Counted from the stretch's first letter, positions 3,035-24,000 are shown. The stretch is DNA of 24,000 nt from Paracoccus versutus (GCF_000763885.1 NZ_JRKO01000020.1:24602-48601); one strand, 5' to 3'. Made by a program: numbers and translations. Notes: generated by a model from the sequence alone, not told the origin.

Positions 3035-3044
3035 GGAGATCACG

Positions 3045-7319: not shown

Positions 7320-7360
7320 TGGCGTTTCCTTGGTCAGTCTTCGTTTTGCTCGGGCGGCAA

Positions 7361-7386
7361 GGCCGCGCCCGTCGGGGAGCGCGGCC
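7361..7386 (-). other. Intercistronic hairpin between the PaaA-like gene and paaZ
   Basis: GGCCGCGC (7361-7368) pairs with GCGCGGCC (7379-7386) around a 10-nt loop. It lies in the 79-nt gap upstream of paaZ. No U-tract follows on the - strand. Confidence 0.3.
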
Positions 7387-7398
7387 GCAAGCGCCGGT

Positions 7399-8151: not shown

Positions 8152-8173
8152 GGGTTCCCCTCCTGCGCCCGGA

Positions 8174-9250: not shown

Positions 9251-9281
9251 GGGGGTATCCTTCCTGAAGCGGGGCGCCTTC

Positions 9282-9803: not shown

Positions 9804-9808
9804 GGGCT

Positions 9809-10663
9809 TTACCAGCTGGCGCCGGGATAGGCGCGTTGCAGGAACTGCATCTCGGCCAGGATATAGCCCAGATGTTCCGTGTGGATGCCCTGCTTGCCGC
9901 CCTTGTGCGCAAAGTCGCTTGCGGGGATCTGCAAGGTCGCCTCGCCCAGCACGTGGCGCAGCGTGGCGTCCCAGCCGGCGCGCAGGCTGGCCGGATCGGG
10001 GGCGATGCCGCGCGCGGCCATCTGGGCATCCTTGTCGTCGCCCAGGAACATCTCGCCGGCATAGGGCCAGAGCGCGTCCAGCGCCTGCTGCATCCGGCGG
10101 TGGCTTTCCTCGGTCCCGTCGCCCAGCCGCACCACCAGGTCGGACGAGCGTTCCAGGTGATAGGCCACTTCCTTGCCGGCCTTGGCCGCGATTTCGGCCA
10201 CGCGCGGGTCCGAGGATGCCGCCAGCCCCTTCAGCAGTTCATGGTGCCAGGCGTCGAACAGGAACTGCCGCATCAGCGTATGGCCGAAATCGCCGTTCGG
10301 ACGCTCGCAGATCAGCAGGTTGCGGAAATCCCAGGCGTCGCGCAGATAGGCCAGGTCGTCGGCCGAGCGGCCCTGCCCCTCGACCTCGCCGGCAAGCCCC
10401 AGCCACAGCTGGGTCTGGCCGATCAGGTCCAGCGCCACGTTGGCCAGCGCGATGTCTTCCTCGAGCGCCGGCGAATGGCCGCACCATTCGGACACGCGAT
10501 GGCCCAGGACCAGGGCGCTGTCGCCGATGCGCAGCAGCGTCTCGAAGAACGCCTCCTGGCCCTCGTCGGGCTGGGGCACGGTCGGATGGGCCGGATGGGC
10601 CTCGGCCTGATGCCGGGCCAGTTCCGCCACCTGGGGCGTGGTCATGTCGGGCAGCGACGGCAT
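9809..10663 (-). CDS. paaC: Phenylacetyl-CoA epoxidase structural subunit PaaC
   Basis: Ferritin-like PaaA/PaaC family sequence (..LLRIGDSALVLGHRVSEWCGHSPALEEDIALANVALDLIGQ.., ..KEVAYHLERS..) without intact ExxH pairs. The start ATG at 10663 overlaps the paaB stop (TGATG). An alternative ATG lies at 10645. Confidence 0.85.
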   Translation of the reverse strand: MPSLPDMTTPQVAELARHQAEAHPAHPTVPQPDEGQEAFFETLLRIGDSALVLGHRVSEWCGHSPALEEDIALANVALDLIGQTQLWLGLAGEVEGQGRSADDLAYLRDAWDFRNLLICERPNGDFGHTLMRQFLFDAWHHELLKGLAASSDPRVAEIAAKAGKEVAYHLERSSDLVVRLGDGTEESHRRMQQALDALWPYAGEMFLGDDKDAQMAARGIAPDPASLRAGWDATLRHVLGEATLQIPASDFAHKGGKQGIHTEHLGYILAEMQFLQRAYPGASW

Positions 10664-10947
10664 CACATATGCCCCACTTCTTCGGGAATGTCGAAAAAGG
10701 TCGGGTGGCGATAGACCTTGGCGTTCGAGGGCTCGAACAGCGGCCCCTTTTCCGAGGGGCTCGACGCGGTGATCTGCGCCGAGGGCACCACCCAGATCGA
10801 CACGCCCTCGTTGCGGCGGGTATAGACGTCGCGGGCGTTCATGATCGCCATTTCGGCGTCGGGCGCGTGCAGGCTGCCGACATGGCGGTGGTTCAGCCCG
10901 TGCTGGCCCCGGATGAAGACTTCCCAGAGCGGCCATTCCTTGGACAT
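10663..10947 (-). CDS. paaB: Phenylacetyl-CoA epoxidase subunit PaaB
   Basis: 94 aa: MSKEWPLWEVFIRGQHGLNHRHVGSLHAPDAEMAIMNARDVYTRR.., a typical PaaB. Confidence 0.9.
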   Translation of the reverse strand: MSKEWPLWEVFIRGQHGLNHRHVGSLHAPDAEMAIMNARDVYTRRNEGVSIWVVPSAQITASSPSEKGPLFEPSNAKVYRHPTFFDIPEEVGHM

Positions 10948-10971
10948 GGTTCTCTCTCCCTAAACTTGGTT

Positions 10972-11000
10972 GCGCCCCGGACCCGGTTGTCCGGCGGCGC
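10972..11000 (-). other. Intercistronic hairpin between paaA and paaB
   Basis: The core is CCGGAC (10977-10982) paired with GTCCGG (10989-10994) around a 6-nt loop. It can extend by 5 more GC pairs if there is a 1-nt bulge. It lies in the 73-nt paaA-paaB gap. Confidence 0.3.
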
Positions 11001-11020
11001 CGTTCCTGGCGATTGCGGGC

Positions 11021-12010
11021 TTACTCGGCGGCCTGCGCGCGGCGGGCTGCGGCCTTCTCGGCATGCGCCATCAGCCCCTCGCGGAACCAGGCGCCGTCCT
11101 CCCAGGCCTTGACGCGGGCGCCCAGCCGGTCCTTGTTGCAGGGCCCGTTGCCGGCGATCACGTCGAAGAATTCCGACCAGTCCGGCTCGCTGAAATCGTG
11201 GCCGCCCTTTTCCTCGTTCCATTTCAGGTCCGGGTCGGGAACGGTCAGGCCCAGGTATTCCGCCTGCGGCACGGTCTGGTCGACGAATTTCTGCCGCAGC
11301 TCGTCATTGGTGTTGATCTTGATCTTCCAGGCCATCGACTGCGCCGAATGCACCGAATCCTTGTCCGAGGGGCCGAACATCATCAGCGCCGGATACCAGA
11401 AGCGGTTCAGCGCGTCCTGCGCCATGCGCTTCTGCGCGGGGGTGCCCTGGGCCAGCTTCATCATCACCGCATAGCCCTGGCGCTGGTGGAAGCTTTCCTC
11501 CTTGCAGATGCGGATCATGGCGCGGGAATAGGGACCGTAGGAGGTGCGTTGCAGTGGCACCTGGTTCATGATCGCCGCGCCATCGACCAGCCAGCCCACC
11601 GCGCCCATGTCGGCCCAGGTCAGCGTCGGATAGTTGAAGATCGAGGAATATTTCATCTTGCCGGCGTGCAAGAGCTCCATCAGCTCGTCGCGCGAGACGC
11701 CCAGCGTCTCGGCCGCCGAGTAGAGATAGAGCCCGTGCCCGGCCTCGTCCTGGACCTTGGCCAAGAGGATCGCCTTGCGCTCCAGCGTGGGGGCGCGGGT
11801 GATCCAGTTGCCCTCGGGCAGCTGGCCGACGATCTCGCTATGGGCGTGCTGGCCGATCTGGCGGACCAGCGTCTTGCGATAACCCTCGGGCATCCATTCC
11901 TTGGGCTCGATCTTCTCGCCGCGGTCGATGCGCTCCTGGAAGGCGATCTCCTGGGGGGTCATCTCCTCGCGGGCTTTCATCCCTTCGGACTTCACAAGCT
12001 GGGCATACAT
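11021..12010 (-). CDS. paaA: Phenylacetyl-CoA epoxidase catalytic subunit PaaA
   Basis: Motifs ..[19 protein letters not shown].., and di-iron ExxH motifs ..VQDEAGH.. and ..CKEESFH... GGGAGAAG lies upstream of ATG 12010. In-frame downstream Met codons are possible alternative starts. Confidence 0.9.
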
Positions 12011-12028
12011 GGCAAACTTCTCCCTGGG

Positions 12029-13234
12029 TCAAACGCGTTCGAGGATCAGCGCGATGCCTTGCCCCACGCCGATGCACATGGTGCAAAGCGCATAGCGCCC
12101 GCCGGTGCGATGCAGCTGATACATCGCCGTCGTCACAAGCCGGGCCCCCGACATGCCAAGCGGGTGGCCAAGCGCGATGGCGCCGCCGTTGGGGTTCACA
12201 TGGGCGGCGTCGTCGGGCAGGCCAAGGTCGCGCAGGGTCGCCAGCGCCTGGCTGGCGAAGGCCTCGTTCAATTCTATCACATCCATCTGGTCGATGGTCA
12301 GTCCCGCGCGCGCCAGCACCTTTTTCGCCGCCGGCGCCGGGCCGATGCCCATGATGCGCGGCTCGACCCCCGCCGCCGCCATGGCGACGATGCGCGCCTT
12401 GGGCGTCAGGCCGTGCCGTTCCGCCGCCTCGCCGGACAGGATCGCCAGCGCCGCGGCGCCGTCGTTCACGCCCGAGGCATTGCCCGCCGTCACCGACAGA
12501 TCGGGGCCGTTCACGCCCTTGAGCCGGGCCAGCGTCTCGGCCGTGGTGCCGGGGCGCGGATGCTCGTCGGTGTCGAAGACCACCGGCTCGCCCTTTTTCT
12601 GCGGGATGGTGACGGGCACGATCTCGTCGGCAAAGACGCCGGCCTGCTGCGCCGCTTCCCAGCGGGCCTGGCTCTGCGCGGCAAAGGCGTCCTGGTCGGC
12701 GCGGCTGACGGCGAAATCGGCGGCGACGTTGTCGGCGGTCTGCGGCATCGAGTCGATGCCGAACCGGGCCTTCATCGCCGGGTTGACGAAGCGCCAGCCG
12801 ATGGTGGTGTCATAGACCGCATTGGCGCGGGAAAAGGCGCTTTCCGCCTTGGGCATCACGAAGGGGGCGCGGGTCATGCTTTCGACGCCGCCGGCGATGA
12901 CGAAATCGCAATCGCCCGCCTTGATCGCGCGGGCCGCCATGCCGACCGCATCCATCCCCGAGCCGCAAAGCCGGTTCACCGTGGTCCCCGGCACCGCGAC
13001 GGGCATGCCCGCCAGCAGCACCGCCATGCGGCCCACGTTGCGGTTGTCCTCGCCCGCCTGGTTGGCGCAGCCATAGATCAGGTCGTCGACCGCCGCCCAG
13101 TCCACGCCGGGGTTGCGCTCCATCAGCGCCTTCAGCGGCACTGCCGCCAGGTCGTCCGCCCGGACCGAGGCCAGCGCCCCGCCATAGCGACCAATCGGCG
13201 TGCGCACCGCGTCACAGATGAAGGCGTCCTGCAT
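12029..13234 (-). CDS. paaJ: 3-oxoadipyl-CoA / 3-oxo-5,6-dehydrosuberyl-CoA thiolase
   Basis: Thiolase motifs ..VNRLCGSGMDAV.., ..NEAFASQ.., ..GGAIALGHPLGMSGARL.., ..CIGVGQGIA... The start is MQDAFICDAVRTPIGR at 13234, with GGGAGAGAG upstream. It is the first gene of the paa operon. Confidence 0.88.
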   Translation of the reverse strand: MQDAFICDAVRTPIGRYGGALASVRADDLAAVPLKALMERNPGVDWAAVDDLIYGCANQAGEDNRNVGRMAVLLAGMPVAVPGTTVNRLCGSGMDAVGMAARAIKAGDCDFVIAGGVESMTRAPFVMPKAESAFSRANAVYDTTIGWRFVNPAMKARFGIDSMPQTADNVAADFAVSRADQDAFAAQSQARWEAAQQAGVFADEIVPVTIPQKKGEPVVFDTDEHPRPGTTAETLARLKGVNGPDLSVTAGNASGVNDGAAALAILSGEAAERHGLTPKARIVAMAAAGVEPRIMGIGPAPAAKKVLARAGLTIDQMDVIELNEAFASQALATLRDLGLPDDAAHVNPNGGAIALGHPLGMSGARLVTTAMYQLHRTGGRYALCTMCIGVGQGIALILERV

Positions 13235-13317
13235 GCTCTCTCCCATTTTCAAGACGAAAGACCGGCGATTCTCCAATTCGCCGACCGATTGGTCAGTTTA
13301 TACATGGCCAAACATCA
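13235..13317 (-). promoter_or_regulatory. Putative paa operon promoter/operator region
   Basis: This is the lowest-GC stretch in the window. Read on the - strand it has a TATAAA -10-like hexamer. Downstream lie an imperfect palindrome GACCGATTGGTC (13283-13294) and GGCGATTCTCCAATTCGCC (13264-13282), which carries a GATTC core like the E. coli PaaX box (from memory). No transcription start is known. Confidence 0.35.
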
Positions 13318-13365
13318 CAAAGAAAGAAAATTCTTCGCACGCCGTGTAATGTCTGGCGGCATGCG
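13318..13365 (-). terminator. Rho-independent-like terminator after paaX
   Basis: Read on the - strand: CGCAUGCCG, a 12-nt loop, then CGGCGUGCG. That is a 9-bp stem with one G.U pair (13336-13365). It is followed by AAGAAUUUUCUUUCUUU. Confidence 0.5.
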
Positions 13366-13382
13366 AAAAAGATAATTTCAAT

Positions 13383-14237
13383 TCAGCCGGTTATCCTGCA
13401 CAGATCGGCCAGTCGCTCTTCGCTCTGGGCGGTTTTCTCGGGCAGGAAGCCGTCGCCGCCCTCGAAATGCGCCCCGATCCAGCGTTCCGCCGCCGGGGAA
13501 AGCTGGCAATAGAGGCGGCGGAACAGCGCCCGCGCCTCGTGCCCCTGCCAGTCCGGCGGCAGGGCGGCCTGCGGCAGGCGCGGGTCGCGCAGCAGCACGC
13601 CGCGATAGTCATGCACCAAAAGCAGCCGGGCGATCAGCGCCATCTCGTCGGACAGCGCCGCGCCCGCCTCGGCCAGGGGCGCAAACCGCGCCAGCATGTC
13701 GAGATAACGCTGATGCAGCGCCGAGAGATCCCAGAACTGCCCGATCCGGCCAAGCGCCGGCGGGTCCGGGGCGTGAAAGACCAGCGCGCCTTCCGGCACC
13801 GGCTGGCCGCGGTCGGGCCGGATGAAGACCGCCCCGCCCATATGGCCCATGCGCTGGTGGCGGGCCTCGTCCTCGGTCAGCTCCGGGGCGTGCAGGATCT
13901 GCCAGCCCCGCGCCGGCACCTCGGCCTTGTAGAGCAGCCCCGCCGCCTGGTCGAATTCCCGCTGGGCCGAGGCGTCCAGCCGGTAATAGCTGTGCCGCCC
14001 CAGCCGCTCGCCGCGCAGCCGATGCGCGGCGACCAGGCGCGAGACGGCGGTGCGCACCAGCGATTCGCTGATGCCGACCCGCTCGCAGACCTCGATCAGC
14101 GTGCCGGTCCACAGTACGCCGCCGCGCGGCACCACCACGTCGCCATAGACGGTGACGATGAACGCGGCCGAACGCAGCGCCATTCCCTGCAATATTCCGT
14201 CGATCAGCCCGCGCTCGGCCATTCCGCCCCGCCGCAT
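13383..14237 (-). CDS. paaX: Phenylacetic acid degradation operon repressor PaaX
   Basis: ..AAFIVTVYGDVVVPRGGVLWTGTLIEVCERVGISESLVRTAVSRLVAAHRLRGERLGRHSYYRL.. matches the E. coli PaaX N-terminal winged-helix region as I remember it. The start is ATG 14237 or 14222. Confidence 0.85.
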   Translation of the reverse strand: MRRGGMAERGLIDGILQGMALRSAAFIVTVYGDVVVPRGGVLWTGTLIEVCERVGISESLVRTAVSRLVAAHRLRGERLGRHSYYRLDASAQREFDQAAGLLYKAEVPARGWQILHAPELTEDEARHQRMGHMGGAVFIRPDRGQPVPEGALVFHAPDPPALGRIGQFWDLSALHQRYLDMLARFAPLAEAGAALSDEMALIARLLLVHDYRGVLLRDPRLPQAALPPDWQGHEARALFRRLYCQLSPAAERWIGAHFEGGDGFLPEKTAQSEERLADLCRITG

Positions 14238-14320
14238 GTTTCCCCGCTGCCTGCAACCGCCGCCATAGAAGCCCGGAAAGCGGTCATGTGCAACGCGGCT
14301 TGCCCCTCGGGCGCGGAGAT

Positions 14321-14346
14321 GCCGGCCACCTGTCGCGATGGCCGGC
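14321..14346 (-). terminator. Hairpin after the acylase gene
   Basis: GCCGGCCA (14321-14328) pairs with TGGCCGGC (14339-14346) around a 10-nt loop. It lies 7 nt past the acylase stop on the - strand. There is no U-tract. Confidence 0.35.
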
Positions 14347-14352
14347 CGGTTC

Positions 14353-16725
14353 CTAGCGCGGAACGGCGATGGTTTCGCGCGACACGGCGGTCGCCTCGAC
14401 CTCGTCGCGGGTCAGCGCCTGTGGGCGGCAGTCGAAGCCCTCGTAAAGCGCCAGCTGGTCCTCGTAATGCGGCGAGGCCTCGCCCGAGGGGCTGATGAAC
14501 CCGCTCTGGCCCGGAGGGGTCACGGCGCAGAACTCGGCCCTGCCGTCGCGGAAGGTGATCCGGTTGTTCTCGGTGCCGCGGTTCATCGCGGTGCCGATGG
14601 CGCGGACCTCGTCCTCGCCGGCCTGCGGGATGCCCAGGTAGTTGCTGGTCTCGAACACATGCTGCTTGATCTCGATGCGCCAGTCCGCGGGCTCCTGGCT
14701 GCCGAACCTGTCGGCCAGCCGCGCCGCCGCCTTGTCGAGCGAGGCGAGGATGATCTCGTTGCGGCCCCCCTCGTCGGCGCCGTTGAAGAAATCATGGGTC
14801 TGCGGCACGCCGGCCCGTTCGCCCAGCAGCGCGTTGTGCAGCATCTGCGCGGCGCGCGAGATACGGTTGTAAAGGATCGCCGGCGGGATGGCCGGGCTGT
14901 CGTCGCGCAGCACGTCCTCGACCATCACGTCCAGCCAGGCCTGGAACAGCCCCACCGCCGGGGTGGCGGCGCGGCCGTCCTCGGCCCGGATCTGCTGCCG
15001 GTCCCAGTTGCGCAGGATCTCGACCAGTTCGGCGCGCTGGCTTTGCGGATCGATGCCCTCGGCCGCATCGAGGATGAAGGGCAGGAAATAGCGGGCGTTG
15101 ATGTCGAGGAAGCTGATCTCGCGGTTGATGTTCCAGACCTCCTCGGGGGTCAGCTTGTCCTTGGCGTCCAGCCGCGCGGTGATCTCGACCACCCGGTCGG
15201 CGCTGCCCCAGGGCGTGGCCTCGAAATTCGCGGCGTCCCCCTTGGCCGAGCGGTTGTTCCAGTTCGCGATCCAGCCCTGGCTGGGGTTATAGGCCTTGGG
15301 CGCATCGGCAAAGGGCCGCAGGCCCTGCCAGTCGTCCTTGCCCGGCTGGGCCGGCAGGCGCTGGTCGTGGCCTTCGGCGCGGACCGGGACATGGCCGGGC
15401 GAGACATAGCCGATATTCCCGTCCCGGTCGGCGTAATACCAGTTGATCGTGGTCGCGACCCTTTCCGCCTGGTCCAGCCATTCCTGGTAATTCTGCGCCT
15501 TGGTCGAGTTCACCCAGGCCATGAGCGTCGAGATCTCCTGCCCCTTCCAGGCGCGGTTGAAGGCATAGGCGGTCGCCGTCTCGGGGTCGATCTGGCCGAC
15601 CACGCCGTAATCGCTTTCCCAGACCGTGGTCTCGACCTCGGGCTGGCCCTTGACGCGGAAGGTCTCGCGGCGCGCCGTCATCTCCTTCCAGCCGTCGCCG
15701 GCGCGGTATTGCCGCGGATTCTCGGGGTTCAGCTCCAGCCGGTAGTAGTCGTTCACGTCGCGCGGCCCGGCCGTGGCGCCCCAGCCGATGGTGCCATTGG
15801 TCCCGAACAGCACATTGGGAACCGCAAAGGGCGTGTTGCCGGTCAGGTCGAACCCGGCGCCATGCAGGCCGATGCTGAAGACATAGGACGGGTTGAAATT
15901 GCCGAATTGCGGGCCGTTGATCAGGATGGTGCTGCCGTCGGTGGTCTTTTGCGGCCCGGCGATCCACAGGTTGCTGGCGCGCGGACGCCCATCGTCGCCG
16001 GGCAGGTCCGGCGCGTTCAGCAGCGCGGCAAAGCGGCTGGCCGAAGGCGGGGTCAGCGCGGCCTTGCGCTGGTATTGCTCGCCCTCGGGCACGGTGGTCG
16101 GGGCCAGCGGGTCTTCGTCCCAGAACATCTGGTCGAAAAGCGCGCGTGCCTGTTCGGCGCCGAATTGCGCCTCCAGCTCGGCCAGCGTCCTGGCATTGGC
16201 CAGTTCGGAGCTGTAGCCCGAAAAGCGGCCGGCCATGGTCCCGACATAGATCATCGCCACGTCGAATTCGGTCCAGCGGCGGGGCTTGAAGCCGAAATCG
16301 TTGAACTGCTTGGGCATCAGCCCGGCCGGTTTGGCCAGAACCCGGTCCACCCACAGGTTGAAGCCCGCCGCATAGCCACGCAGGATGTCACGCTCTTCCG
16401 GCGCCAGCGCCTCGATCTGGCGGCGGATCTCGGCATGGTCGAACATCGCGCGGGTCTGGATGTCGAAGGGCAGCCGCTCGATGACCAGCACCTCGGCCAC
16501 CTCGCCCAGGACCGAGCGCCGCGCCATCTCCATCTGGAACAGCCGGTCCTGCGCCACGCTGTAGCCGAAGCCCGCGTAAAGCCCATGCACGTCGTCGGCA
16601 TAGACATGCGGCACGCCCCAGCTGTCGCGGATGATCTCGACCTTGGTGTCGGCCAGCGCCGGGCAGGCCAGAAGGGCAGAAAGGCCAGCCGACAGCAGCA
16701 GGCGGCCAAGCGAAGACCTGAGCAT
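14353..16725 (-). CDS. pac: Penicillin G acylase-family Ntn hydrolase (S45), secreted precursor
   Basis: The signal peptide is MLRSSLGRLLLSAGLSALLACPALA. The alpha-chain start reads ..IIRDSWGVPHVYADD... The beta-chain N-terminal nucleophile context is ..ASNLWIAGPQKTTDGSTILINGPQFGNFNPSYVFSIGLHGAGFDLTGNTPF.. (compare E. coli SNMWVIG..NGPQFGW..GLHGAGYDVTGNTPF). GGAGGAGAA lies upstream of ATG 16725. Confidence 0.88.
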   Translation of the reverse strand: MLRSSLGRLLLSAGLSALLACPALADTKVEIIRDSWGVPHVYADDVHGLYAGFGYSVAQDRLFQMEMARRSVLGEVAEVLVIERLPFDIQTRAMFDHAEIRRQIEALAPEERDILRGYAAGFNLWVDRVLAKPAGLMPKQFNDFGFKPRRWTEFDVAMIYVGTMAGRFSGYSSELANARTLAELEAQFGAEQARALFDQMFWDEDPLAPTTVPEGEQYQRKAALTPPSASRFAALLNAPDLPGDDGRPRASNLWIAGPQKTTDGSTILINGPQFGNFNPSYVFSIGLHGAGFDLTGNTPFAVPNVLFGTNGTIGWGATAGPRDVNDYYRLELNPENPRQYRAGDGWKEMTARRETFRVKGQPEVETTVWESDYGVVGQIDPETATAYAFNRAWKGQEISTLMAWVNSTKAQNYQEWLDQAERVATTINWYYADRDGNIGYVSPGHVPVRAEGHDQRLPAQPGKDDWQGLRPFADAPKAYNPSQGWIANWNNRSAKGDAANFEATPWGSADRVVEITARLDAKDKLTPEEVWNINREISFLDINARYFLPFILDAAEGIDPQSQRAELVEILRNWDRQQIRAEDGRAATPAVGLFQAWLDVMVEDVLRDDSPAIPPAILYNRISRAAQMLHNALLGERAGVPQTHDFFNGADEGGRNEIILASLDKAAARLADRFGSQEPADWRIEIKQHVFETSNYLGIPQAGEDEVRAIGTAMNRGTENNRITFRDGRAEFCAVTPPGQSGFISPSGEASPHYEDQLALYEGFDCRPQALTRDEVEATAVSRETIAVPR

Positions 16726-16810
16726 GTGATTCTCCTCCGGGTGCAAGCGCCTCCTCCGGCGCATGGCCATGGTTATCCTTAACCGTCCGGTCGGTCAATT
16801 ATTGAAGGCA

Positions 16811-16847
16811 CCCATCCGCCGGCGGCCGCCCTGCGCCGGCGGATGGG
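16811..16847. repeat. Perfect 14-bp inverted repeat (37-bp palindromic element) in the divergent intergenic region
   Basis: CCCATCCGCCGGCG (16811-16824), a 9-nt spacer, then CGCCGGCGGATGGG (16834-16847). A third direct copy of the 11-mer CCCATCCGCCG lies at 16918-16928. Confidence 0.9.
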
Positions 16848-16965
16848 CCGAGGATCGCCGCGTTCACGCGATTGTCAGCCCCAACGGGCGCAGGCTGGCC
16901 GATCATGGTGGGGCGGCCCCATCCGCCGCGACGCAGTCCCGACCCACATCCCAAGGAGGTCCGAC

Positions 16966-17352
16966 ATGCAGATCCGAGCCCGCACCCTTTCCTCCGTCAT
17001 GCTTGCCGCCGCGCTGGCGCTAGGCACCATGCCCGCGCTGGCGCATCACGGCTGGTCCTGGGCCGAGGGGGAACAGACGACGCTCGAGGGAACCGTCGAG
17101 AGCGTCTCGATGAGCCCGCCCCATCCCACGCTTCAGGTCCGCGACGCCCAGGGCACCGTCTGGCAGGTCGACCTGGGCAATCCCAACCAGACCGCCCGCT
17201 CGGGCTTTACCGCCGACACGGCAGAGCCGGGCGATGCGATCACGGTGATCGGCAATCGCAACCAGGATCAAAGCGCGCATATGAAGGCCGTCCGCATCGT
17301 GATCGACGGGCAGAACTACGACATGTATCCCGAGCGCATCCAGGCGGACTGA
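16966..17352 (+). CDS. Secreted small protein, DUF6152-like (function unknown)
   Basis: AAGGAGG lies upstream of ATG 16966. The signal peptide MQIRARTLSSVMLAAALALGTMPALA is followed by HHGWSW... The pattern ..LEGTVESVSMSPPHPTLQVRDAQGTVWQVDLG..GDAITVIGNR.. resembles the DUF6152 family as I recall it (AHHS.. then an OB-like core). Confidence 0.6.
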   Translation: MQIRARTLSSVMLAAALALGTMPALAHHGWSWAEGEQTTLEGTVESVSMSPPHPTLQVRDAQGTVWQVDLGNPNQTARSGFTADTAEPGDAITVIGNRNQDQSAHMKAVRIVIDGQNYDMYPERIQAD

Positions 17353-17355
17353 GCC

Positions 17356-17829
17356 GTGCAGGAACTCGCGGCCTGGGCCGAGGGCACCGCGCTTGCCGCG
17401 GCGCTGCGCCGGTCGGGCCATCTCTACATGGTGGTGAACGCCACGCATATCCTGGGCATCGCGCTGCTGCTGGGCGCGATCGTTCCGCTGGACCTGCGCC
17501 TTGTCGGGATCGTCCGCGGCGGGGCGCTGCGCGTGCTGGCGCCCTTCCTGTCCCGCGCGGCGGGGGCCGGGCTTGCCATCGCCCTTGCGACCGGCCCGGT
17601 GCTGTGGTCGGTCTCGGCCCGCGACTATCTGGCCAATGCCGCCTTTCGCTGGAAGATCGCGCTGATCGGCCTTGGCCTTGCGGTCGTCGCCCTGCAACAT
17701 GCCGGCAAGGGCTGGCAACAGGCGGTCGAGACCGGGGTGCCCAGCCCGGATGCGCGCATCCTGGCGGCGCTTTCGCTGGCGATCTGGGTGTCGGTGCTGC
17801 TGGCGGGGCGCTGGATCGGCTTTCTGTGA
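17356..17829 (+). CDS. Four-TM inner-membrane protein (DUF6644-like?, function unknown)
   Basis: The GTG start lies 4 nt after the upstream stop. There are four hydrophobic segments: LYMVVNATHILGIALLLGAIVPL, AGAGLAIALATGPVLW, WKIALIGLGLAVVAL and ILAALSLAIWVSVLLAGRWIGF. Family assignment is from memory only. Confidence 0.55.
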   Translation: MQELAAWAEGTALAAALRRSGHLYMVVNATHILGIALLLGAIVPLDLRLVGIVRGGALRVLAPFLSRAAGAGLAIALATGPVLWSVSARDYLANAAFRWKIALIGLGLAVVALQHAGKGWQQAVETGVPSPDARILAALSLAIWVSVLLAGRWIGFL

Positions 17830-17943
17830 CGCCCCGCGCACCGCTGCATCGGAAATCCTGAGACGCTGGCAAGGGAATGGCGATTTTTTGCGGCGGCGCG
17901 GCTTCGCTAGTCTTGGGCAAACGGCCAGGACGACGAGTTGCCC

Positions 17944-18711
17944 ATGACCCAGATTCCCTTTTCCCATCCGTTCCGCCCGGAACTGGTGATCCTGCGCAGC
18001 GGCATCGCGACGGGATCGGCGCTGCGCCGGGGCGTCGTCGTGCTGGGGAATTTCGACGGCTTCCACCGCGGCCACCAGTTCCTGATCCGCTCGGCCCGCC
18101 GGATCGCGGCGGATGGCCGCGCGGTCGGCGTCATGTCGGTCGAGCCCCATCCGCGCCAGGTGTTCTGCCCCGAGGCCGCGCCCTTTCGCCTGGCCCTGCC
18201 CGAGCAGAAGCACCGCACGGCGCGGCGCATCGGGCTGGACTACCTGTTCGAGCCGGTCTTCGACCGCGCCTTTGCCGGCATGACGCCCTGCGCGTTCATC
18301 GACGAGGTGCTGTGCCGGCGGCTGGGGGTTTCGCATGTCGTGGTCGGCGCGGATTTCCATTTCGGCGCGAAACGCGCCGGCACCACCCGGACCCTGGCGC
18401 AGGAATGCACCGCGCGCGGCATCGGCGTCACGGTGCTGCCGTTGCAGGGCGGCTTTTCCTCGACCGCCGCGCGCCAGGCGATCCTGGCCGGCGACATGCG
18501 GCAGGCACGGCGCTGCCTCGGCCGCCCGTGGGAAGGCGTGCTGGATGCCGGCCGGCTTGCGCCCGACCAGATCCGCCCGCCGGCGGGGCGCTATCTGGTC
18601 CGAACCCAGCGGTCCGCGCAGGCAGGGCCGGTCCGGCTGGACGCGGACGGCCGCATCCTGTCCCCCGAAAGCCTGCCGCGCCGGATCGAATTCCTGGATC
18701 GGCACGACTGA
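17944..18711 (+). CDS. RibF-like FMN adenylyltransferase (FAD synthetase) with a truncated/degenerate riboflavin-kinase half
   Basis: ..VVVLGNFDGFHRGHQFLI.., ..VVVGADFHFGAKRAG.. and ..FSSTAARQAI.. match the RibF N-terminal domain. Only about 70 aa follow, and there is no GFPTAN-type motif. The start is ATG 17944 (the track begins at TTG 17938). Confidence 0.7.
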   Translation: MTQIPFSHPFRPELVILRSGIATGSALRRGVVVLGNFDGFHRGHQFLIRSARRIAADGRAVGVMSVEPHPRQVFCPEAAPFRLALPEQKHRTARRIGLDYLFEPVFDRAFAGMTPCAFIDEVLCRRLGVSHVVVGADFHFGAKRAGTTRTLAQECTARGIGVTVLPLQGGFSSTAARQAILAGDMRQARRCLGRPWEGVLDAGRLAPDQIRPPAGRYLVRTQRSAQAGPVRLDADGRILSPESLPRRIEFLDRHD

Positions 18712-18739: not shown

Positions 18740-19294
18740 ATGGACCTGCCCCTGCACCTGCCGGCCAGCACCTATCGCACCATGCCGTGGAAGAACGGCA
18801 CCGGCGCCACCGACGAGATCTGGCTCTGGCCGCCCCGCAGCGACCGCGACGCCTTTTCGATCCGCATCTCGCGCGCGCCGATCCTGGCGGATGGCGGCTT
18901 TTCCGCCTTTGCCGGCGCCGACCGGGTCATCACGCTGATCGAGGGCACGGGGCTGGTGCTGGATTTCGGCCATCGCCGCGAACATCTGGCGCCGCTCGCC
19001 CCGTTCCGCTTCGACACCGGCCTGGCGCCCCAGGGGCGGCCGGTCGGCGGTCCGGTCCGGGTCTTCAACGTCATGGCCGATCGCAACGACTGGACCATCC
19101 CCGATGCCGCGGTGCTTGAGAAGGGAACGGCGGAGGCGACCGGCCTGACCGTCCTCTTCGCGCTGGAAGCCCAGCAGGCCAGGACCGGCGGCCGCCTGCA
19201 CGACTTGGCCCGTCAGGATACGCTGATCTGCGGGCCGGGCCCGCTGCGGCGCGGCGGGCGGGCGCTGGTCGTCACCCTAGCGCCCGCGGGCTGA
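18740..19294 (+). CDS. hutD: HutD/Ves-family protein
   Basis: AAAAGGAG lies upstream of ATG 18740. The sequence MDLPLHLPASTYRTMPWKNGTGATDEIWLWP... has the W-x-N-G-x-G-x-T-x-E-I signature of HutD/Ves. The track ORF from 18335 is an upstream extension that overlaps the previous gene. Confidence 0.7.
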   Translation: MDLPLHLPASTYRTMPWKNGTGATDEIWLWPPRSDRDAFSIRISRAPILADGGFSAFAGADRVITLIEGTGLVLDFGHRREHLAPLAPFRFDTGLAPQGRPVGGPVRVFNVMADRNDWTIPDAAVLEKGTAEATGLTVLFALEAQQARTGGRLHDLARQDTLICGPGPLRRGGRALVVTLAPAG

Positions 19295-19302
19295 CGGGGG
19301 GC

Positions 19303-19320
19303 GCGGGCCGCCAGGCCCGC
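19303..19320. terminator. Hairpin between convergent hutD-like and flavin-reductase-fusion genes
   Basis: GCGGGCC (19303-19309), loop GCCA, then GGCCCGC (19314-19320). It lies within the 31-nt convergent gap. Confidence 0.4.
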
Positions 19321-19325
19321 ACGCA

Positions 19326-20495
19326 TCAGGCCCGCGCGAATTTCTCGCGGCATTTCTGGGCGAAACGCTGGGCGGCGCTGGACAGCGCATGCCCCTTGCG
19401 CCAGGCCAGCACGATCTGCGACAGCGCATGATCGCCCGCCAGCGGCAGCGCCACCAGCGGCAGCCCGTCATAGCTCATGCTCGATGCGGGCTTGGTGCAA
19501 AGCAGCGTATAGCCCAGCCCATGCGCGACCATGCCCCGCACCATCTCGAACGAGGCCGAGCGATGCGCGATCAGCGGCTCGACCCCCTGCGCCTCGAGGA
19601 TGCCGGTGAAATAGGCGCTGGAGGGCGGCGCATCCAGAAGCACCATCGGCTCGGCCGCCAACTCGGTCGGCAGGATCTCGGCCTGCCGGGCCATCGGATG
19701 ATCCTCGGCCATCAGCACATAGGGCTTCAGCACGCTCAGCGCCTGCCAGTCGAAACGCTCGTCCAGGTCGTTGTCGTAGATCACCGCGATCTCGGTCTCG
19801 CCCGAGACCAGGCTTTCGGTCAGCCGGCGCTGGTCCCCTTCCAGCAGCTCGATGTCGAGCCCGCCCAGTTGCCGGATCAGCGAGGGCATCAGGAACGGCC
19901 CGAAGGTGTGGAAGCAGCCGACCTTCAGCTTGATCCCTTCGCCGTTCAGCACGCCCCGCATGCTGCGCGGCGCCTCGATCCGGCGCGACGAGCCATAGGA
20001 GCGGTTGGCATAGATCAGCGGCGAGCCGAGCCGCGCGCTATGCGTGTCCTCGACGCCGCACAGCAGGACGTGATGCGTGCCCACCCGCTCGGCCGACAGC
20101 ACCCGGCATTCGAAGGCGACCAGCGGGTCGGCGACGCGGGGCGTGCCATTGGCCAGCACCACCCAGTCGGTGCATTCGAACTTGTCGCCCAGCTCGTCCT
20201 TGAAGCGGCCGGCGAAGGCTTCCGAGATATAGGACTGGTCCTCGCGCAGCACGTTCACGCAAAGGACGCCGTTCTCGATGATCTTCGGCGCCGCCGGGCT
20301 GAGGTGATGCACGCAGATCAGCAGCGTCGGCGCCTCGCCATCGGCCGAGACCGAGGCCATGGCCGAAACCGTGACGCCCGCCCTGCCCGCCGGCCCGTCG
20401 GTGGTCACGACATTCACCGTGCAGGCGGCATGGCTCATCCCGGCGACGAAACGGTCGCGCAGCGGGATCTGGGGCATCTGCGGGTCGGCATTCAT
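19326..20495 (-). CDS. Fusion protein: N-terminal flavin reductase (HpaC/RutF-like FMN-binding split barrel) plus C-terminal LysR-type substrate-binding domain, with no HTH
   Basis: The N-terminal part reads ..FVAGMSHAACTVNVVTTDGPAGRAGVTVSAMASVSADGEAPTLLICVHH..CVNVLREDQSYISEAFAG..VGTHHVLLCGVEDTH..PLIYANRSYG. The C-terminal part reads ..LKVGCFHTFGPFLMPSLIRQL..LLEGDQRRLTESLVSGETEIAVIYD..PMVLLDAPPSSAYF..MVAHGLGYTLL.. and aligns with the effector domain of the neighbouring LTTR. AAGGAAAG lies upstream of ATG 20495. It is a single uninterrupted frame of 389 aa. Confidence 0.75.
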   Translation of the reverse strand: MNADPQMPQIPLRDRFVAGMSHAACTVNVVTTDGPAGRAGVTVSAMASVSADGEAPTLLICVHHLSPAAPKIIENGVLCVNVLREDQSYISEAFAGRFKDELGDKFECTDWVVLANGTPRVADPLVAFECRVLSAERVGTHHVLLCGVEDTHSARLGSPLIYANRSYGSSRRIEAPRSMRGVLNGEGIKLKVGCFHTFGPFLMPSLIRQLGGLDIELLEGDQRRLTESLVSGETEIAVIYDNDLDERFDWQALSVLKPYVLMAEDHPMARQAEILPTELAAEPMVLLDAPPSSAYFTGILEAQGVEPLIAHRSASFEMVRGMVAHGLGYTLLCTKPASSMSYDGLPLVALPLAGDHALSQIVLAWRKGHALSSAAQRFAQKCREKFARA

Positions 20496-20550
20496 GGCTG
20501 CTTTCCTTGCGTGGGGTTCGTTCCGATTGTCCTGAATGCAGATTGCCGGC

Positions 20551-20569
20551 TTTTGCCGTCGAGCCAAAA
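20551..20569. promoter_or_regulatory. LTTR-box-like inverted repeat TTTTG-N9-CAAAA (T-N11-A architecture)
   Basis: TTTTG (20551-20555), a 9-nt spacer, then CAAAA (20565-20569). It is an AT-rich dyad in the 96-nt gap between the lysR stop and the fusion-gene start, about 55-75 nt upstream of ATG 20495. Confidence 0.3.
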
Positions 20570-20591
20570 TCGTGTTTTCCGCAGCTCTGCC

Positions 20592-21560
20592 TCAGGAAGA
20601 TTGATGGGCCGGATGATCGGGGCCGCATTCGGTCTGCCCGGCCGGCAGCATGCCCGGCAGGGCGCCGTCGCCGATCACCTCGCGGCAATAGTCGACAAAG
20701 GCCTCGGCCGCGCGCGACCGGCGCAGCTCGGTCAGGGAGGCGATGCCGAAGGCGATGGATTGCGAGACGTCCTCGATCGGCAGATAGACCAGCGGCAGAC
20801 CGTTCTCGGCGTGGCGGTTGGCAGGCCGGACGGTCATCATGCTGTAGCCGATGCCCGCCGCGACATAGGAACGCAGCGACGCGGTGGACGAGGTCTCCAT
20901 CACGATCCGGGGGGTGCCGCCGATCTTGCGGAACATGCCCAGGAAATAGTCGCGCGTCAGCGGCGGGTCCAGCAGGACGAAGGGGTCGTCGATCAGCTCG
21001 GCCAGCCGGATCGACCGGCGCCCCGCCATGCGATGCCCGGCCCCGACGATGACATAGGTCCTGAGCCGCGCCAGCTCGATGAACGAGACATCCGGCGGCA
21101 GGTTCAGGTCATAGGTCAGCGCCAGGTCGATCCGCGCCAGCCGCAGCTTTTCCAAGAGATCGACCTCGCTGCCCTCGGTCATGGTCATCTGCACCGCCTC
21201 GTAGCGGCCCGAGAAGCCGGTCCAGAGTTCCGGCGCGATCAGCGGCGCGAAGGTGAAGAAGGTGCCGACATTCAGCGTCCCCGCGACATGGTCGTTCACG
21301 TCGCTGGCCACGTCGTAAAGCTCGGAGGCGGCGCGCAGCGATTCCTTGGCCGCGCGCAGCAGCCGGGTGCCCGCGGGGGTCAGCGACAGGCCCTGCGCGT
21401 GATGGCGCACGAAAAGCTGCACGTTCAGTTCGGTCTCCAGATGCGCGATGGCGGCCGAGATCGAGGGCTGCGAGATATTGACCTGCTCGGCGGCCTTCGT
21501 GACCGACAGCGTCTCGCCCGCCGCGATGAAATAGCTGAGTTGCCTGAGCGTGAATCGCAT
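20592..21560 (-). CDS. LysR-family transcriptional regulator (full length)
   Basis: MRFTLRQLSYFIAAGETLSVTKAAEQVNISQPSISAAIAHLETELNVQLFVRHHAQGLSLTPAG.. is the canonical LTTR winged HTH. It is followed by a PBP2-type effector domain. Confidence 0.9.
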   Translation of the reverse strand: MRFTLRQLSYFIAAGETLSVTKAAEQVNISQPSISAAIAHLETELNVQLFVRHHAQGLSLTPAGTRLLRAAKESLRAASELYDVASDVNDHVAGTLNVGTFFTFAPLIAPELWTGFSGRYEAVQMTMTEGSEVDLLEKLRLARIDLALTYDLNLPPDVSFIELARLRTYVIVGAGHRMAGRRSIRLAELIDDPFVLLDPPLTRDYFLGMFRKIGGTPRIVMETSSTASLRSYVAAGIGYSMMTVRPANRHAENGLPLVYLPIEDVSQSIAFGIASLTELRRSRAAEAFVDYCREVIGDGALPGMLPAGQTECGPDHPAHQSS

Positions 21561-21640
21561 CGTCTTGGTCCCCTGTCATGCGCGCAAAGTGGCAACATTC
21601 TTTCTGCGCTGGCCCGCCGAAAGGGAAGCTGGTTCTTGGG

Positions 21641-22813
21641 TCAGGCCGCCGGCGCCTCCAGCGCGTCGAGCAGGCGCGACAGCATCCGGTCGCAGGCCGA
21701 CAGCTGTTCGGCGGCGATGAATTCGTCGGGCTTGTGGCCCTGTTCCATGAAGCCCGGCCCGCAGATCGCCGTGGACATGCCCAGGCCCTGATGGAACAGC
21801 CCGCCTTCGGTCCCGAAGGCGACCTTGATCGCCGGCCCATCCTGGCCGGTGATGCGGCGCAGCAGCCGGACCGCGGGCGCGTCCTCGGGGGCATCGAGAC
21901 CCGGATAGCCCGAGACCGTCTCGATCTCGATCCGTGCCTCGGGGAAACGGGCGCGATGCGGGGCGGCGATGGCCTCGGCGTCGCCGGCGATGGCGGCCAG
22001 GATCGCGGCGGGGTCGTCGGCGACGATGTTGCGGATCTCGAAGTCGATCTCGCAGCGGTTCGGCACGATGTTCAGCGCCGTGCCGCCCTGCATGAGGCCG
22101 GCATGGATGGTGGAAAAGGGAATGTCATAGGCCGGGTCGCGGGCGCCGGCTCGGACCAGTTCCTCTTGCCGGGCCTGAAGACTGGCGATGAAGGCCGCGC
22201 CCAGGTGCAAGGCGTTCAGCGCGTTCGGGGCCAGCGCCGAATGGCCCTCGCGGCCGTGGCAGCAGGCGCGGCAGGCGAGCTTGCCCTTGTGGCCGGTGGC
22301 GATGCGCATGCCGGTCGGCTCGCCCACGATGCAAAGCGCCGGGCGGTCGGGACGCGCGGCCAGCGCCTCGATCATGCCGCGCACGCCCATGCAGCCGATC
22401 TCCTCGTCATACGACAGCGCCAGGTGCAGCGGCCTGCGCAGGTCGCGCCGGGCGGCGCCGATCGCGGCATGGACCGCGGCGGCGACGAAGCCCTTCATGT
22501 CCGCCGTGCCGCGCCCGTAATAGCGCCCGTCCCGCTCGGTCAGGGCAAAGGGATCGACGCTCCAGTCCTGGCCGGCCACCGGCACCACGTCGGTATGGCC
22601 CGACAGCACCACGCCCCCCGGCCCCTCGGGACCGATGGTCGCCCAGAGATTGGCGCGGCTGCCATCGGCATGGGCGAAGCGTTCGACGCGCGCGCCCGCC
22701 GGCACCAGCAGCCCCTCGACATAATCCAGCAGGTCGAGGTTCGGGCGGCGGGACAGCGTCTCATAGGCAACCAGCCGGCGCAGGATGTCGACGGTCGAGG
22801 GGATCGCGGTCAT
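21641..22813 (-). CDS. M20-family amidohydrolase, acetylornithine deacetylase (ArgE)-like
   Basis: Motifs ..VVLSGHTDVVPVAGQDWSVDPF.., ..GRGTADMKGFVAA.., ..YDEEIGC.., ..GEPT.., and C-terminal ..CGPGFMEQGHKPDEFI... The start is MTAIPSTVDIL at 22813, with AAGGA upstream. Confidence 0.8.
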   Translation of the reverse strand: MTAIPSTVDILRRLVAYETLSRRPNLDLLDYVEGLLVPAGARVERFAHADGSRANLWATIGPEGPGGVVLSGHTDVVPVAGQDWSVDPFALTERDGRYYGRGTADMKGFVAAAVHAAIGAARRDLRRPLHLALSYDEEIGCMGVRGMIEALAARPDRPALCIVGEPTGMRIATGHKGKLACRACCHGREGHSALAPNALNALHLGAAFIASLQARQEELVRAGARDPAYDIPFSTIHAGLMQGGTALNIVPNRCEIDFEIRNIVADDPAAILAAIAGDAEAIAAPHRARFPEARIEIETVSGYPGLDAPEDAPAVRLLRRITGQDGPAIKVAFGTEGGLFHQGLGMSTAICGPGFMEQGHKPDEFIAAEQLSACDRMLSRLLDALEAPAA

Positions 22814-22868: not shown

Positions 22869-23546
22869 TCATTCGTCGCCGGGCACGCCATAGCTCGGCG
22901 CGGCGTCGGGGTTCAGCGCGCGGGTCACATAGGCGTCCATCTCAAGCCGCCAGCGTTCCCACAGGGCGGCGCAATCCTCGATGGGATCGCCCTCGCTCCA
23001 GTCGATGCGCAGGTCGGCGATGGGCCAGCTGACCTTGTCCACGATCAGCATGCCCATGGAATGCACCGGCCCCTCTTCGCCGCCCGCGGCGACCGAGGCG
23101 CGCATGCCCGCCAGCAGCCGGTCGCCCAGGTGCCGGCCCCTGGCCGCCATGAAGGCATCGACCATCTTCTGCGGGATCCCGGCCGAGCGCAGCAGGTTGC
23201 CCGCCGCCGCCACGCCCTCGCCATGGGCGATGCCATGCGTGCCCAGCGTCCGGGCGCCGGAACGCCCGGCGGTGCGGCCCGCCGCATCGACCAGCGCCAG
23301 CTGGCGATACTCGACATGCGACGCCCCGGCCACCAGCCGCTCCAGTGCCTCGGCCGCCGAAAGCCCCTGCGCCATCAGGTCCAGCCCCTTGGGCCCCAGG
23401 CTCGGGTCGGTGACGTTCTGGGTCGCGACCACCCCCACGCCCGCCCGCGCATGGGCGCAACGCGCCGCCACGCAGGGCGAGGAGGAGGAGACGGCGATGC
23501 CGAACATGCCGGTCTCGGGGCAGCGGGCGGAGATCGAGAAGGTCAT
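22869..23546 (-). CDS. DUF1028-family protein (Ntn-hydrolase-like fold)
   Basis: MTFSISARCPETGMFGIAVSSSSPCVAARCAHARAGVGVVATQN.. is a typical DUF1028 N-terminus, with Thr2 as the putative N-terminal nucleophile. It starts 7 nt after the upstream stop. Confidence 0.7.
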   Translation of the reverse strand: MTFSISARCPETGMFGIAVSSSSPCVAARCAHARAGVGVVATQNVTDPSLGPKGLDLMAQGLSAAEALERLVAGASHVEYRQLALVDAAGRTAGRSGARTLGTHGIAHGEGVAAAGNLLRSAGIPQKMVDAFMAARGRHLGDRLLAGMRASVAAGGEEGPVHSMGMLIVDKVSWPIADLRIDWSEGDPIEDCAALWERWRLEMDAYVTRALNPDAAPSYGVPGDE

Positions 23547-23553
23547 GTCCGCC

Positions 23554-23973
23554 TCATGCGTCCGGGATGACGGCGGTGGCCTCGATCTCGACCACCCATT
23601 CGGGCCGGGCCAGCGCCGGAACCACGATCCCGGTCGAGCAGGGATGCACGCCCTGCAGGTGCCGGCCCATTTCCTGATAGACCGCCTCGCGATAGCGGAT
23701 GTCGGTCACATAGACGACGATGCGGCAGATATGCTCCATCCGCGATCCCGCTTCTTCCAGCAGCATCCGAATGTTTTCCATGGTCTTGCGGGTCTGCATC
23801 GCCGGGTCGCCGACATGCAGGCATTCGCGGGTCTCCAGGTCCTGCGAAACCTGGCCGCGCAGGAAGACCATGGTGCCGCGGGCGACGACGCCCTGGCTCA
23901 GGTCGTTGTCCAGCTTCTGCTCGGGATAGGTCTCCCTGGTGTTGAAGGGGCGGATGCGGTGATGGATGGTCAT
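23554..23973 (-). CDS. Rid (YjgF/YER057c/UK114) family protein
   Basis: ..VFLRGQVSQD.., ..QTRKTMENIRMLLEEAGSRMEHICRIVVYVTD.. and C-terminal ..VVEIEATAV.. are typical of the family. GGAG lies upstream of ATG 23973. A TGA at 23992-23994 on the - strand suggests another gene ends just upstream, so the operon probably continues off-window. Confidence 0.8.
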   Translation of the reverse strand: MTIHHRIRPFNTRETYPEQKLDNDLSQGVVARGTMVFLRGQVSQDLETRECLHVGDPAMQTRKTMENIRMLLEEAGSRMEHICRIVVYVTDIRYREAVYQEMGRHLQGVHPCSTGIVVPALARPEWVVEIEATAVIPDA

Positions 23974-24000
23974 GGTTTCTGCTCCGGTCGGTCAGTGTTT

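Follow-up and report, generated by a model that had tools for sequence, protein, structure and literature searches.

The window considered here, the whole stretch of 24,000 nucleotides from Paracoccus versutus to which all coordinates refer, carries on its minus strand a gene, at 19326-20495, whose 389-residue product joins a flavin reductase to the effector domain of a LysR-type transcriptional regulator (LTTR) and has no helix-turn-helix (HTH) domain. Immediately upstream, also on the minus strand at 20592-21560, is a complete LTTR gene with both HTH_1 and LysR_substrate domains (Pfam), and beyond it lie genes for an M20 deacylase, a DUF1028 protein, a RidA-family protein and, at the very edge of the window, an HpaB-family oxygenase. 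What is the ligand-binding half of a transcription factor doing on a flavin reductase?

A flavin reductase joined to a LysR-type effector domain

The open frame runs over 19326-20567 (minus strand) with the ATG at 20495 giving the 389 residues; this start codon is matched by the N-termini of homologues and has the Shine-Dalgarno sequence AAGGAA 8-9 nt to its 5′ side. An earlier note on this DNA had described one uninterrupted frame with a good ribosome-binding site, a flavin reductase in the N-terminal half, a LysR effector domain without HTH in the C-terminal half and a complete LTTR gene next door, and it was right on each of these points. The GC content at third codon positions (GC3) of the fusion gene is 0.88, which is usual for genes of the window. 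An 800-residue open reading frame (ORF) is antisense to the fusion and LTTR genes (19389-21791, plus strand), and there are several similar long antisense ORFs in the window; as GC3 of the coding strand is 0.88-0.89, it is taken to be a high-GC artefact.

Pfam assigns residues 20-169 (19989-20438) to PF01613, Flavin_Reduct (E 2e-26; 93 bits with a cutoff of 27; model positions 1-151 of 153), and residues 189-386 (19338-19931) to PF03466, LysR_substrate, the effector domain resembling type 2 periplasmic binding proteins (PBP2; E 5.5e-33; 115 bits with a cutoff of 28; model positions 7-208 of 209), with no match to the HTH_1 model PF00126 at E ≤ 0.01. The reductase half is HpaC/RutF/TftC-like: its best NCBIfam models are RutF (132 bits, equivalog cutoff 254.75) and HpaC (100 bits, cutoff 205.95), both below cutoff, and its matches in PDB are 2R0X, CobR (3CB0) and TftC (3K86). 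Between the two domains a linker of about residues 163-188 (19932-19988) is predicted to be flexible and is poorly conserved across the fusion family. LTTR models align with the fusion only from about model position 80 on, the match of the CynR model beginning at position 80, so that the long LTTR linker helix is missing and the final part of the fusion's linker corresponds to the end of that helix. An AlphaFold2 (AF2) model made with 115 family members has a mean predicted local distance difference test score (pLDDT) of 84, with a confident beta-barrel and a confident two-lobed effector domain whose fold matches that of LTTR effector domains. Since residues 163-186, which contain one short helix, have a pLDDT below 50, and the overall predicted TM-score (pTM) is 0.56, the two domains seem to be joined by a flexible tether. 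As modelled, two confident domains and a disordered linker are compatible with a regulatory module.

Could two genes have been joined by a frameshift or an assembly error? A 100% identical protein is recorded from P. pantotrophus (contig FPKI01000003.1). A word-indexed search with the whole fusion gave 1378 proteins at E ≤ 1e-10, and in the best 120 of these, which were examined, both domains are present over identities descending from 100% to 56%, one apparent chimera excepted. A single unbroken frame of 375-405 residues is kept in at least 115 full-length orthologues down to 56% identity, and in representatives down to about 40%. The fusion is accordingly genuine, because an identical protein is recorded and homologues keep both domains in one frame. 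A stop or frameshift between the domains, for which the earlier note had wanted orthologues inspected, did not appear; the presence of the identical protein in independent assemblies and the conservation of the frame rule out a frameshift or pseudogene and leave artefactual joining with virtually no probability. The apparent chimera, P0107, is a metagenomic protein of 310 residues that is 100% identical to the first 56% of the fusion and then continues as an MFS_1 transporter, probably through misassembly.

The sources of the fusions are Paracoccus, Labrys, Ensifer, Pseudaminobacter, Ruegeria, Roseovarius, Sulfitobacter, Leisingera, Hwanghaeella and many metagenomes. Their database names are generic only (‘LysR substrate-binding domain-containing protein’, ‘flavin reductase’, ‘RutF’). 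The N-terminal domain is the better conserved half (44-77% identity across fusions, with 35-69% for short fragments, versus 35-62% for the C-terminal domain) and has many invariant residues. Judged by its homologues, the fusion is an old, conserved and widespread alphaproteobacterial family. According to the earlier note this architecture is not known to have been characterised, and a literature search likewise found no published characterisation of a flavin reductase joined to a LysR effector domain; any impression of rarity is corrected by the breadth of the family.

The reductase slot in a conserved HpaB cluster

Gene contexts were drawn from contigs encoding homologues and from a plasmid collection (individual loci are given L numbers below); a direct locus search with the fusion alone yielded only six close relatives. 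In minus-strand order the Paracoccus cluster reads HpaB, RidA, DUF1028, M20, LTTR, fusion. The HpaB-family oxygenase has 484 residues and only its extreme 3′ end (23992-24000, minus strand) is within the window. The rest, past the edge on the same contig and followed in the context of an identical contig (L001 5049-6503), is accompanied by a branched-chain-type ABC transporter. The oxygenase matches TIGR02309 (HpaB-1) at 220 bits, below cutoff, and the Thermus thermophilus HpaB 2YYG at 181 bits, and is 71-87% identical across fusion-bearing loci. The minus-strand genes after it encode a RidA-family enamine/imine deaminase (23554-23973; Pfam, with NCBIfam Rid and RutC matches), a DUF1028 protein that is Ntn-hydrolase-like (22869-23546; Pfam E 6.5e-65) and an ArgE-like M20 deacylase (21641-22813; Pfam, and NCBIfam PRK07522 at 504 bits); these are candidates, respectively, for HinL, a HinH-type amidase and a HinG-type N-formylaspartate deformylase of the histamine pathway considered further below.

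In four Paracoccus species and in Labrys, Hwanghaeella, Leisingera, Roseovarius, Ensifer and HTCC2150 the fusion is found together with HpaB, RidA, DUF1028 and, as a rule, M20, the order varying. An HpaB-family gene shares the cluster with the fusion in 10 independent lineages and is directly adjacent to it in Hwanghaeella, where the fusion begins 8 nt past HpaB, and in L025, where the two are divergent, M20 is about 5 kb off and no RidA or DUF1028 gene was called. No HpaB cluster with the fusion has a second PF01613 gene. The steady partners of the fusion are thus the HpaB-type oxygenase, RidA, DUF1028 and the M20 deacylase, and the LTTR is not one of them.

The most instructive comparison is with a plasmid of Rhizobium sp. 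ACO-34A, where the order is HpaB, a stand-alone flavin reductase of 173 residues, RidA, DUF1028, LTTR. Apart from a plain reductase standing where the fusion would be, this order is that of Hwanghaeella, and the ACO-34A reductase is 61% identical to the N-terminal domain of the Hwanghaeella fusion and 52% to that of Paracoccus. Because ACO-34A has a plain reductase in the equivalent position, the fusion has the place of the reductase in a two-component HpaB system, and it is very probably the reductase partner of the oxygenase. Stand-alone reductases of the HpaC/RutF/TftC type share its fold, its family and, in ACO-34A, its place after HpaB; they differ in being single-domain proteins of about 150-185 residues with no sensor, while the fusion falls short of the RutF and HpaC equivalog cutoffs.

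Not all relatives keep such company. Two divergent fusions, 38-39% identical, stand among genes of other pathways. On plasmid pAA02 of Aminobacter aminovorans (L019 9989-11167) the neighbours are glutamine-synthetase-like, acyl-CoA-dehydrogenase-family, second flavin reductase and TetR genes, and in L026 (2267-3433) they are thiolase, alpha/beta-hydrolase, ornithine cyclodeaminase-like, RidA and DAO genes; the same architecture seems to have been put to use again with other substrates. An oxygenase of another type, FMO-like, is present in L016, L018, Ideonella and Burkholderia. L018 has a stand-alone reductase beside its FMO-type cluster, and in L016 the fusion follows an FMO-type operon on a contig that begins inside the FMO gene, so that an HpaB gene upstream is possible. 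The main fusions are nearer to the stand-alone reductase of ACO-34A than to the divergent fusions, and the history of the fusion may have included later fission or more than one fusion.

Some clusters contain, in addition, genes for GbcA-like Rieske oxygenases (L013 2553-3704 and 5396-6550, L011 7558-8691, L015 8862-10001), whose best NCBIfam match is glycine-betaine monooxygenase, far below cutoff; in L015 the Rieske gene overlaps the fusion start and HpaB is not nearby. They might N-demethylate methylated imidazole compounds, or the reductase might serve them as a second client. A gene for a B12-binding-domain protein of about 590 residues stands next to one for an F420_oxidored/P5CR-like protein of 248-258 residues, the pair flanking the cluster both in L013 (12160-14717) and in L025 (12550-15377), which are unrelated to each other.

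Kinship of the effector domain

From which regulator did the effector domain come? The neighbouring LTTR is the obvious candidate, and the earlier note, seeing by eye that the two effector domains align along their length, had suggested a tandem duplication followed by a domain swap. The alignment is real, at 33% identity over 199 residues (BLASTP; E 4e-29, 102 bits). The duplication fares differently. In an exhaustive phmmer search of 1.8 billion 50%-identity representatives the C-terminal domain had 2322 matches at E ≤ 1e-3, of which the best 150 were listed: 13 are near-full-length fusions, about 16 are N-terminally truncated fusion fragments and about 85 are full-length LTTRs with HTH, the last up to 44% identical to the domain. 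All 150 outscore the adjacent LTTR against it, with 112-212 bits in phmmer and 110-208 in BLASTP. No orthologue of the adjacent LTTR is among the 150, the best of which scores 155 bits against that LTTR's effector domain versus 201-236 for true orthologues, which are found in Roseovarius, Ensifer, Leisingera and Labrys. The fusion C-terminal domain is 28-34% identical to the LTTRs of the clusters themselves. In a neighbour-joining tree, unbootstrapped and star-like and supporting only that the adjacent-LTTR clade and the fusion clade are not sisters, the main fusion clade is separate from that of the adjacent LTTR. Tandem duplication of the adjacent LTTR is rejected on the strength of the ranking, the direct BLAST comparison, the tree and a comparison of alignment columns. 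Unrelated LTTRs of the same loci give no BLAST match to the fusion C-terminal domain; because of this the domain and the adjacent LTTR are placed in one broad LTTR subfamily, and this common membership accounts for the alignment by eye.

Nor is the neighbourhood itself stable. The earlier note had asked whether orthologous loci keep both genes: the fusion is kept, and the adjacency is not. In Paracoccus, Leisingera, Ensifer and Roseovarius the two genes lie side by side in one orientation; they are 9.6 kb apart in Labrys, the LTTR is of a different lineage (35-41% identity) in the Hwanghaeella and HTCC2150 clusters, and there is none beside the fusion at L015, L016 or L026. In the Paracoccus intergenic region (20496-20591, minus strand), which holds the ribosome-binding site of the fusion, there is a dyad, GAAAA-N5-TTTTG, at 20565-20579 (GAAAACACGATTTTG, minus strand). 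It lies inside a block that, in an alignment of seven species, is common to four Paracoccus species and does not extend beyond the genus, and it was found once in 21 kb with an expectation of 0. It could be a regulator site for a separate fusion promoter. No sigma-70-like promoter or terminator was found over 19000-21800, as is to be expected for a simple sigma-70 consensus in a genome of 70% GC.

In sequence and fold alike, the C-terminal domain is best matched among solved structures by 3FZV and 6M5F (144 bits; Foldseek E 1e-23), the title of the latter being ‘HinK, a LysR family transcriptional regulator from Pseudomonas aeruginosa’. Fusion C-terminal domains are 37-43% identical to HinK (PA0218). 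When 123 fusions, six HinK-clade proteins and seven cluster LTTRs are aligned by group, there are 17 positions at which the fusions, at 90% conservation or more, agree with the HinK clade and the cluster LTTRs differ; among them are P291 and S292 (‘PSRxYF’), E317 and G321 (‘SxEMVRG’) and Y342 and D343 (‘TYDG’). Only one position is conserved in both groups and yet different. The sensor domain is HinK-like, and HinK and the fusion are both associated with RidA, DUF1028 and M20 genes. Unlike the fusion, HinK possesses an HTH and a linker helix, and it acts on DNA.

Probable pathway, proposed regulation and rival explanations

HinK senses imidazole-4-acetate (ImAA), a metabolite of histamine, and activates hinDAC and hinFLHG, the products of the latter turning ImAA into aspartate; the same work calls PA5390 (HinG) a ‘probable peptidic bond hydrolase’ and gives PA5391-PA5393 as hypothetical proteins (PMC8231116). 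Published functions are FAD-monooxygenase (EC 1.14.13.5) for HinF, enamine deaminase for HinL, amidase for HinH and EC 3.5.1.8 for HinG (PMC6467879). Burkholderia pyrrocinia plasmid pBPJTT has an LTTR whose effector domain is 80% identical to that of HinK, and this HinK orthologue is divergent to an operon for an NAD(P)/FAD-dependent oxidoreductase (FMO-like), RidA, DUF1028 and an ArgE-like M20 protein. The same FMO-like/RidA/DUF1028/M20 operon is present in Ideonella, with a HinK orthologue (68% identical) about 12.6 kb away that is followed by aldehyde dehydrogenase and histamine dehydrogenase genes. In beta- and gammaproteobacteria, HinK is thus found with FMO-like, RidA, DUF1028 and M20 genes, in agreement with the order hinFLHG. 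The Paracoccus RidA, DUF1028 and M20 genes have the same order as in these operons, and their products are 53%, 54% and 49-50% identical, respectively, to those of Ideonella and Burkholderia. Close homologues of histamine dehydrogenase are encoded in L025 (5246-7312), L005 (16668-18737) and L021 (12299-14392), scoring 976-1257 bits to 6DE6 versus about 526-554 to trimethylamine dehydrogenase. For the one in L025, which comes straight after HpaB, and the one some 5 kb off the Hwanghaeella cluster the scores are 1096-1257 versus about 526-530.

With this similarity to HinK-linked operons, the histamine dehydrogenase genes nearby and the linkage of HutD described below, the cluster looks like the ImAA branch of histamine catabolism, and by sequence comparison it is most likely the alphaproteobacterial version of the route from ImAA to aspartate. 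Likeness to hinFLHG, a Pseudomonas operon seen also in B. pyrrocinia and Ideonella, extends to a LysR regulator of the same subfamily. The chief difference is in the oxygenase, single-component and FMO-like there and two-component, HpaB plus reductase, in Paracoccus. HpaB is not homologous to the FMO-like oxygenase and no HinF-type single-component FAD monooxygenase is present in the Paracoccus cluster, which has the HpaB-family enzyme instead; most likely HpaB plus reductase replaced it. The RidA/DUF1028/ArgE-like triad is also found on conjugative plasmids of Enterobacterales (more than 100 Klebsiella, 7 E. coli and 14 Pantoea records, for instance L022 8562-10848). The E. coli AH21 copy is truncated on its upstream side by ISKpn28 and is uninformative about the oxygenase. 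Annotations of DUF1028 genes sometimes read, wrongly, ‘fimbrial assembly protein FimA’ or ‘major pilin’.

On its other side the fusion gene is convergent with a HutD-family gene (18740-19294, plus strand; Pfam and tblastn map), before which is a plus-strand gene (17938-18711; Pfam) for a protein with an FAD_syn (FMN adenylyltransferase) domain and no riboflavin-kinase domain, NCBIfam RibF models matching its N-terminal half only. HutD is beside the fusion in Paracoccus, Leisingera and Ensifer and within the HpaB operon in HTCC2150. The FAD_syn gene keeps its place beside HutD, the pair being conserved in Paracoccus, Leisingera and Ensifer, with equivalents in L009 and L014; the pair may bear on FAD supply for the oxygenase and on the metabolism of imidazole compounds. 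Farther off are a phenylacetate (paa) catabolic cluster within 5256-16770 (PaaZ-like, PaaE, PaaD, PaaC, PaaA, thiolase, PaaX), past the paa genes a penicillin-amidase-family gene (14353-16770) and a DUF6152/DUF6644 pair (16843-17829), and, at 1523-5125, a methylcitrate-cycle set (PrpD, citrate synthase-like, and phosphoenolpyruvate mutase/isocitrate lyase-like). None of these is conserved beside the fusion in other genera.

The proposal to which we incline is that a reductase gained the effector domain of a HinK-like LysR regulator, shorn of its HTH and of nearly all its linker helix. The fusion would be an NAD(P)H:flavin reductase giving reduced flavin to the HpaB-type oxygenase, with a sensor domain that would bind the substrate of the latter, ImAA or a close relative. 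Once occupied, the sensor would act through the flexible linker to lift inhibition of the reductase domain. Reduced flavin would then be made only when the oxygenase has substrate, with less wasteful oxidation of NADH and less H2O2. Two-component flavin monooxygenases waste NADH and make H2O2 when the reductase runs without substrate, and no reductases other than those of the C1 type are known to counter the waste with a built-in ligand sensor. C1, the reductase of the p-hydroxyphenylacetate 3-hydroxylase (C1/C2) of Acinetobacter baumannii, is the closest analogue. Its C-terminal domain is MarR-like. The N-terminal domains of C1 and the fusion are homologous, residues 21-169 of the fusion matching positions 15-157 of the 309-position C1 model NF045919 (NCBIfam) and the match ending there, and both carry, behind the reductase domain, an additional one from a ligand-binding family of transcription factors. 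C1 serves a two-component monooxygenase as its reductase, and so, very probably, does the fusion. In C1 the additional domain is autoinhibitory and the oxygenase substrate lifts the inhibition (PMC6165268, PMC11795597). The differences are that the MarR-like domain is not homologous to the PBP2-type LysR domain of the fusion (PF03466), that the partner, C2, is an oxygenase of acyl-CoA-dehydrogenase fold and not an HpaB, that pathway and ligand are others, and that regulation of the fusion is something we infer. By this analogy the sensor-fused flavin reductase is a design already known, the LysR-type sensor being what differs.

How far is the proposal to be trusted? Taken whole (reductase of a two-component HpaB monooxygenase, probable ImAA cluster, HinK-like sensor that may gate), we hold it to be somewhat more probable than otherwise. 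Gating itself, which was the second option of the earlier note and is the one favoured by the evidence, is put at much the same level, a little to the near side of even. ImAA as the ligand is a plausible guess that stops just short of even odds. Several observations weigh against the proposal. The Rhizobium cluster works with a plain reductase, which means that the pathway can do without the sensor; some fusions have no visible HpaB (L015 has the Rieske enzyme only, L016 the FMO-like one, and L019 and L026 belong to other pathways); and the AF2 model, at its pTM of 0.56, defines no interface between the domains. At the position of HinK residue E103 most fusions have His, and at that of R205 half of them have Arg, with Ser in the fusion of the window, so that with identities of only 37-43% the ligand could differ from that of HinK. 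The equation of HinF, HinH and HinG with the FMO-like, DUF1028 and M20 proteins comes from the B. pyrrocinia and Ideonella operons and published descriptions, no Pseudomonas entry being listed among the best 120 matches in the DUF1028 and FMO-like protein searches.

Some of these points would be at home in other explanations. The cluster might degrade another N-heterocycle or amine-derived acid, which the domain would sense with the rest of the mechanism unchanged. The unrelatedness of HpaB to the FMO-like oxygenase, the GbcA-like Rieske genes inserted in some clusters, the very wide spread of the RidA/DUF1028/M20 triad and the loss of E103 and R205 all suit this. We think it unlikely nevertheless, as histamine dehydrogenase is encoded beside HpaB in L025 and near the Hwanghaeella cluster, HutD is linked, and RidA, DUF1028 and M20 have orthologue-level similarity to the products of genes beside a true HinK orthologue. 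HpaC-type reductases and LTTR effector domains both dimerise, and the LysR-type domain might accordingly have a structural role only, as an oligomerisation or docking module, for instance for handing over flavin near the oxygenase, with no small-molecule control. The divergent fusions in unrelated pathways would fit such a generic module, as would the two charged HinK positions that are not kept; yet many residues specific to the HinK clade are more than 90% conserved family-wide, which a retained pocket or hinge explains better, and the sole characterised reductase with an extra C-terminal domain is effector-regulated (PMC6165268, PMC11795597). A purely structural role therefore seems rather improbable to us.

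The remaining explanation, also raised by the earlier note, is that of an HTH-less decoy whose C-terminal domain hetero-oligomerises with the cluster LTTR, so that transcription follows flavin/NAD(P)H redox state or inducer is titrated. LTTRs do oligomerise through their effector domains, the two proteins are of the same broad subfamily from which unrelated LTTRs of the same loci are excluded by BLAST, the genes are adjacent and co-oriented in four genera, and the intergenic dyad is conserved in Paracoccus. Against this, identity to the cluster LTTRs is only 28-34%, HinK and more than 85 other LTTR clusters are closer, the adjacency is unstable in the ways described above, the reductase is the more conserved half and the same slot is filled by a plain reductase in Rhizobium. 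Hetero-oligomerisation of the fusion with its neighbour is thus disfavoured and the decoy would be a distinct surprise.

Returning to the substrate-gated reductase, one may tentatively go further, to a proposition we consider possible and still less likely than its negation: that this is a second, independent origin of substrate-gated flavin supply, with an ImAA sensor derived from HinK placed on the reductase of an HpaB-type ImAA monooxygenase that displaced HinF in Alphaproteobacteria. If gating is true, then an unrelated sensor fold has led to the same design, which will have arisen at least twice. No earlier LysR effector domain would have been shown to serve as the allosteric module of an enzyme and not of a DNA-binding domain, and the relatives found in other clusters would form a set of ligand-gated reductases that differ in specificity. 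Such a protein would provide a natural, modular, ligand-switchable flavin reductase for biocatalysis and biosensing. For the bacteria themselves the cluster points to an uncharacterised two-component imidazole-acetate/histamine route in Paracoccus, rhizobia and marine bacteria of the Roseobacter group, and suggests roles in it for DUF1028 and the ArgE-like M20 enzyme.

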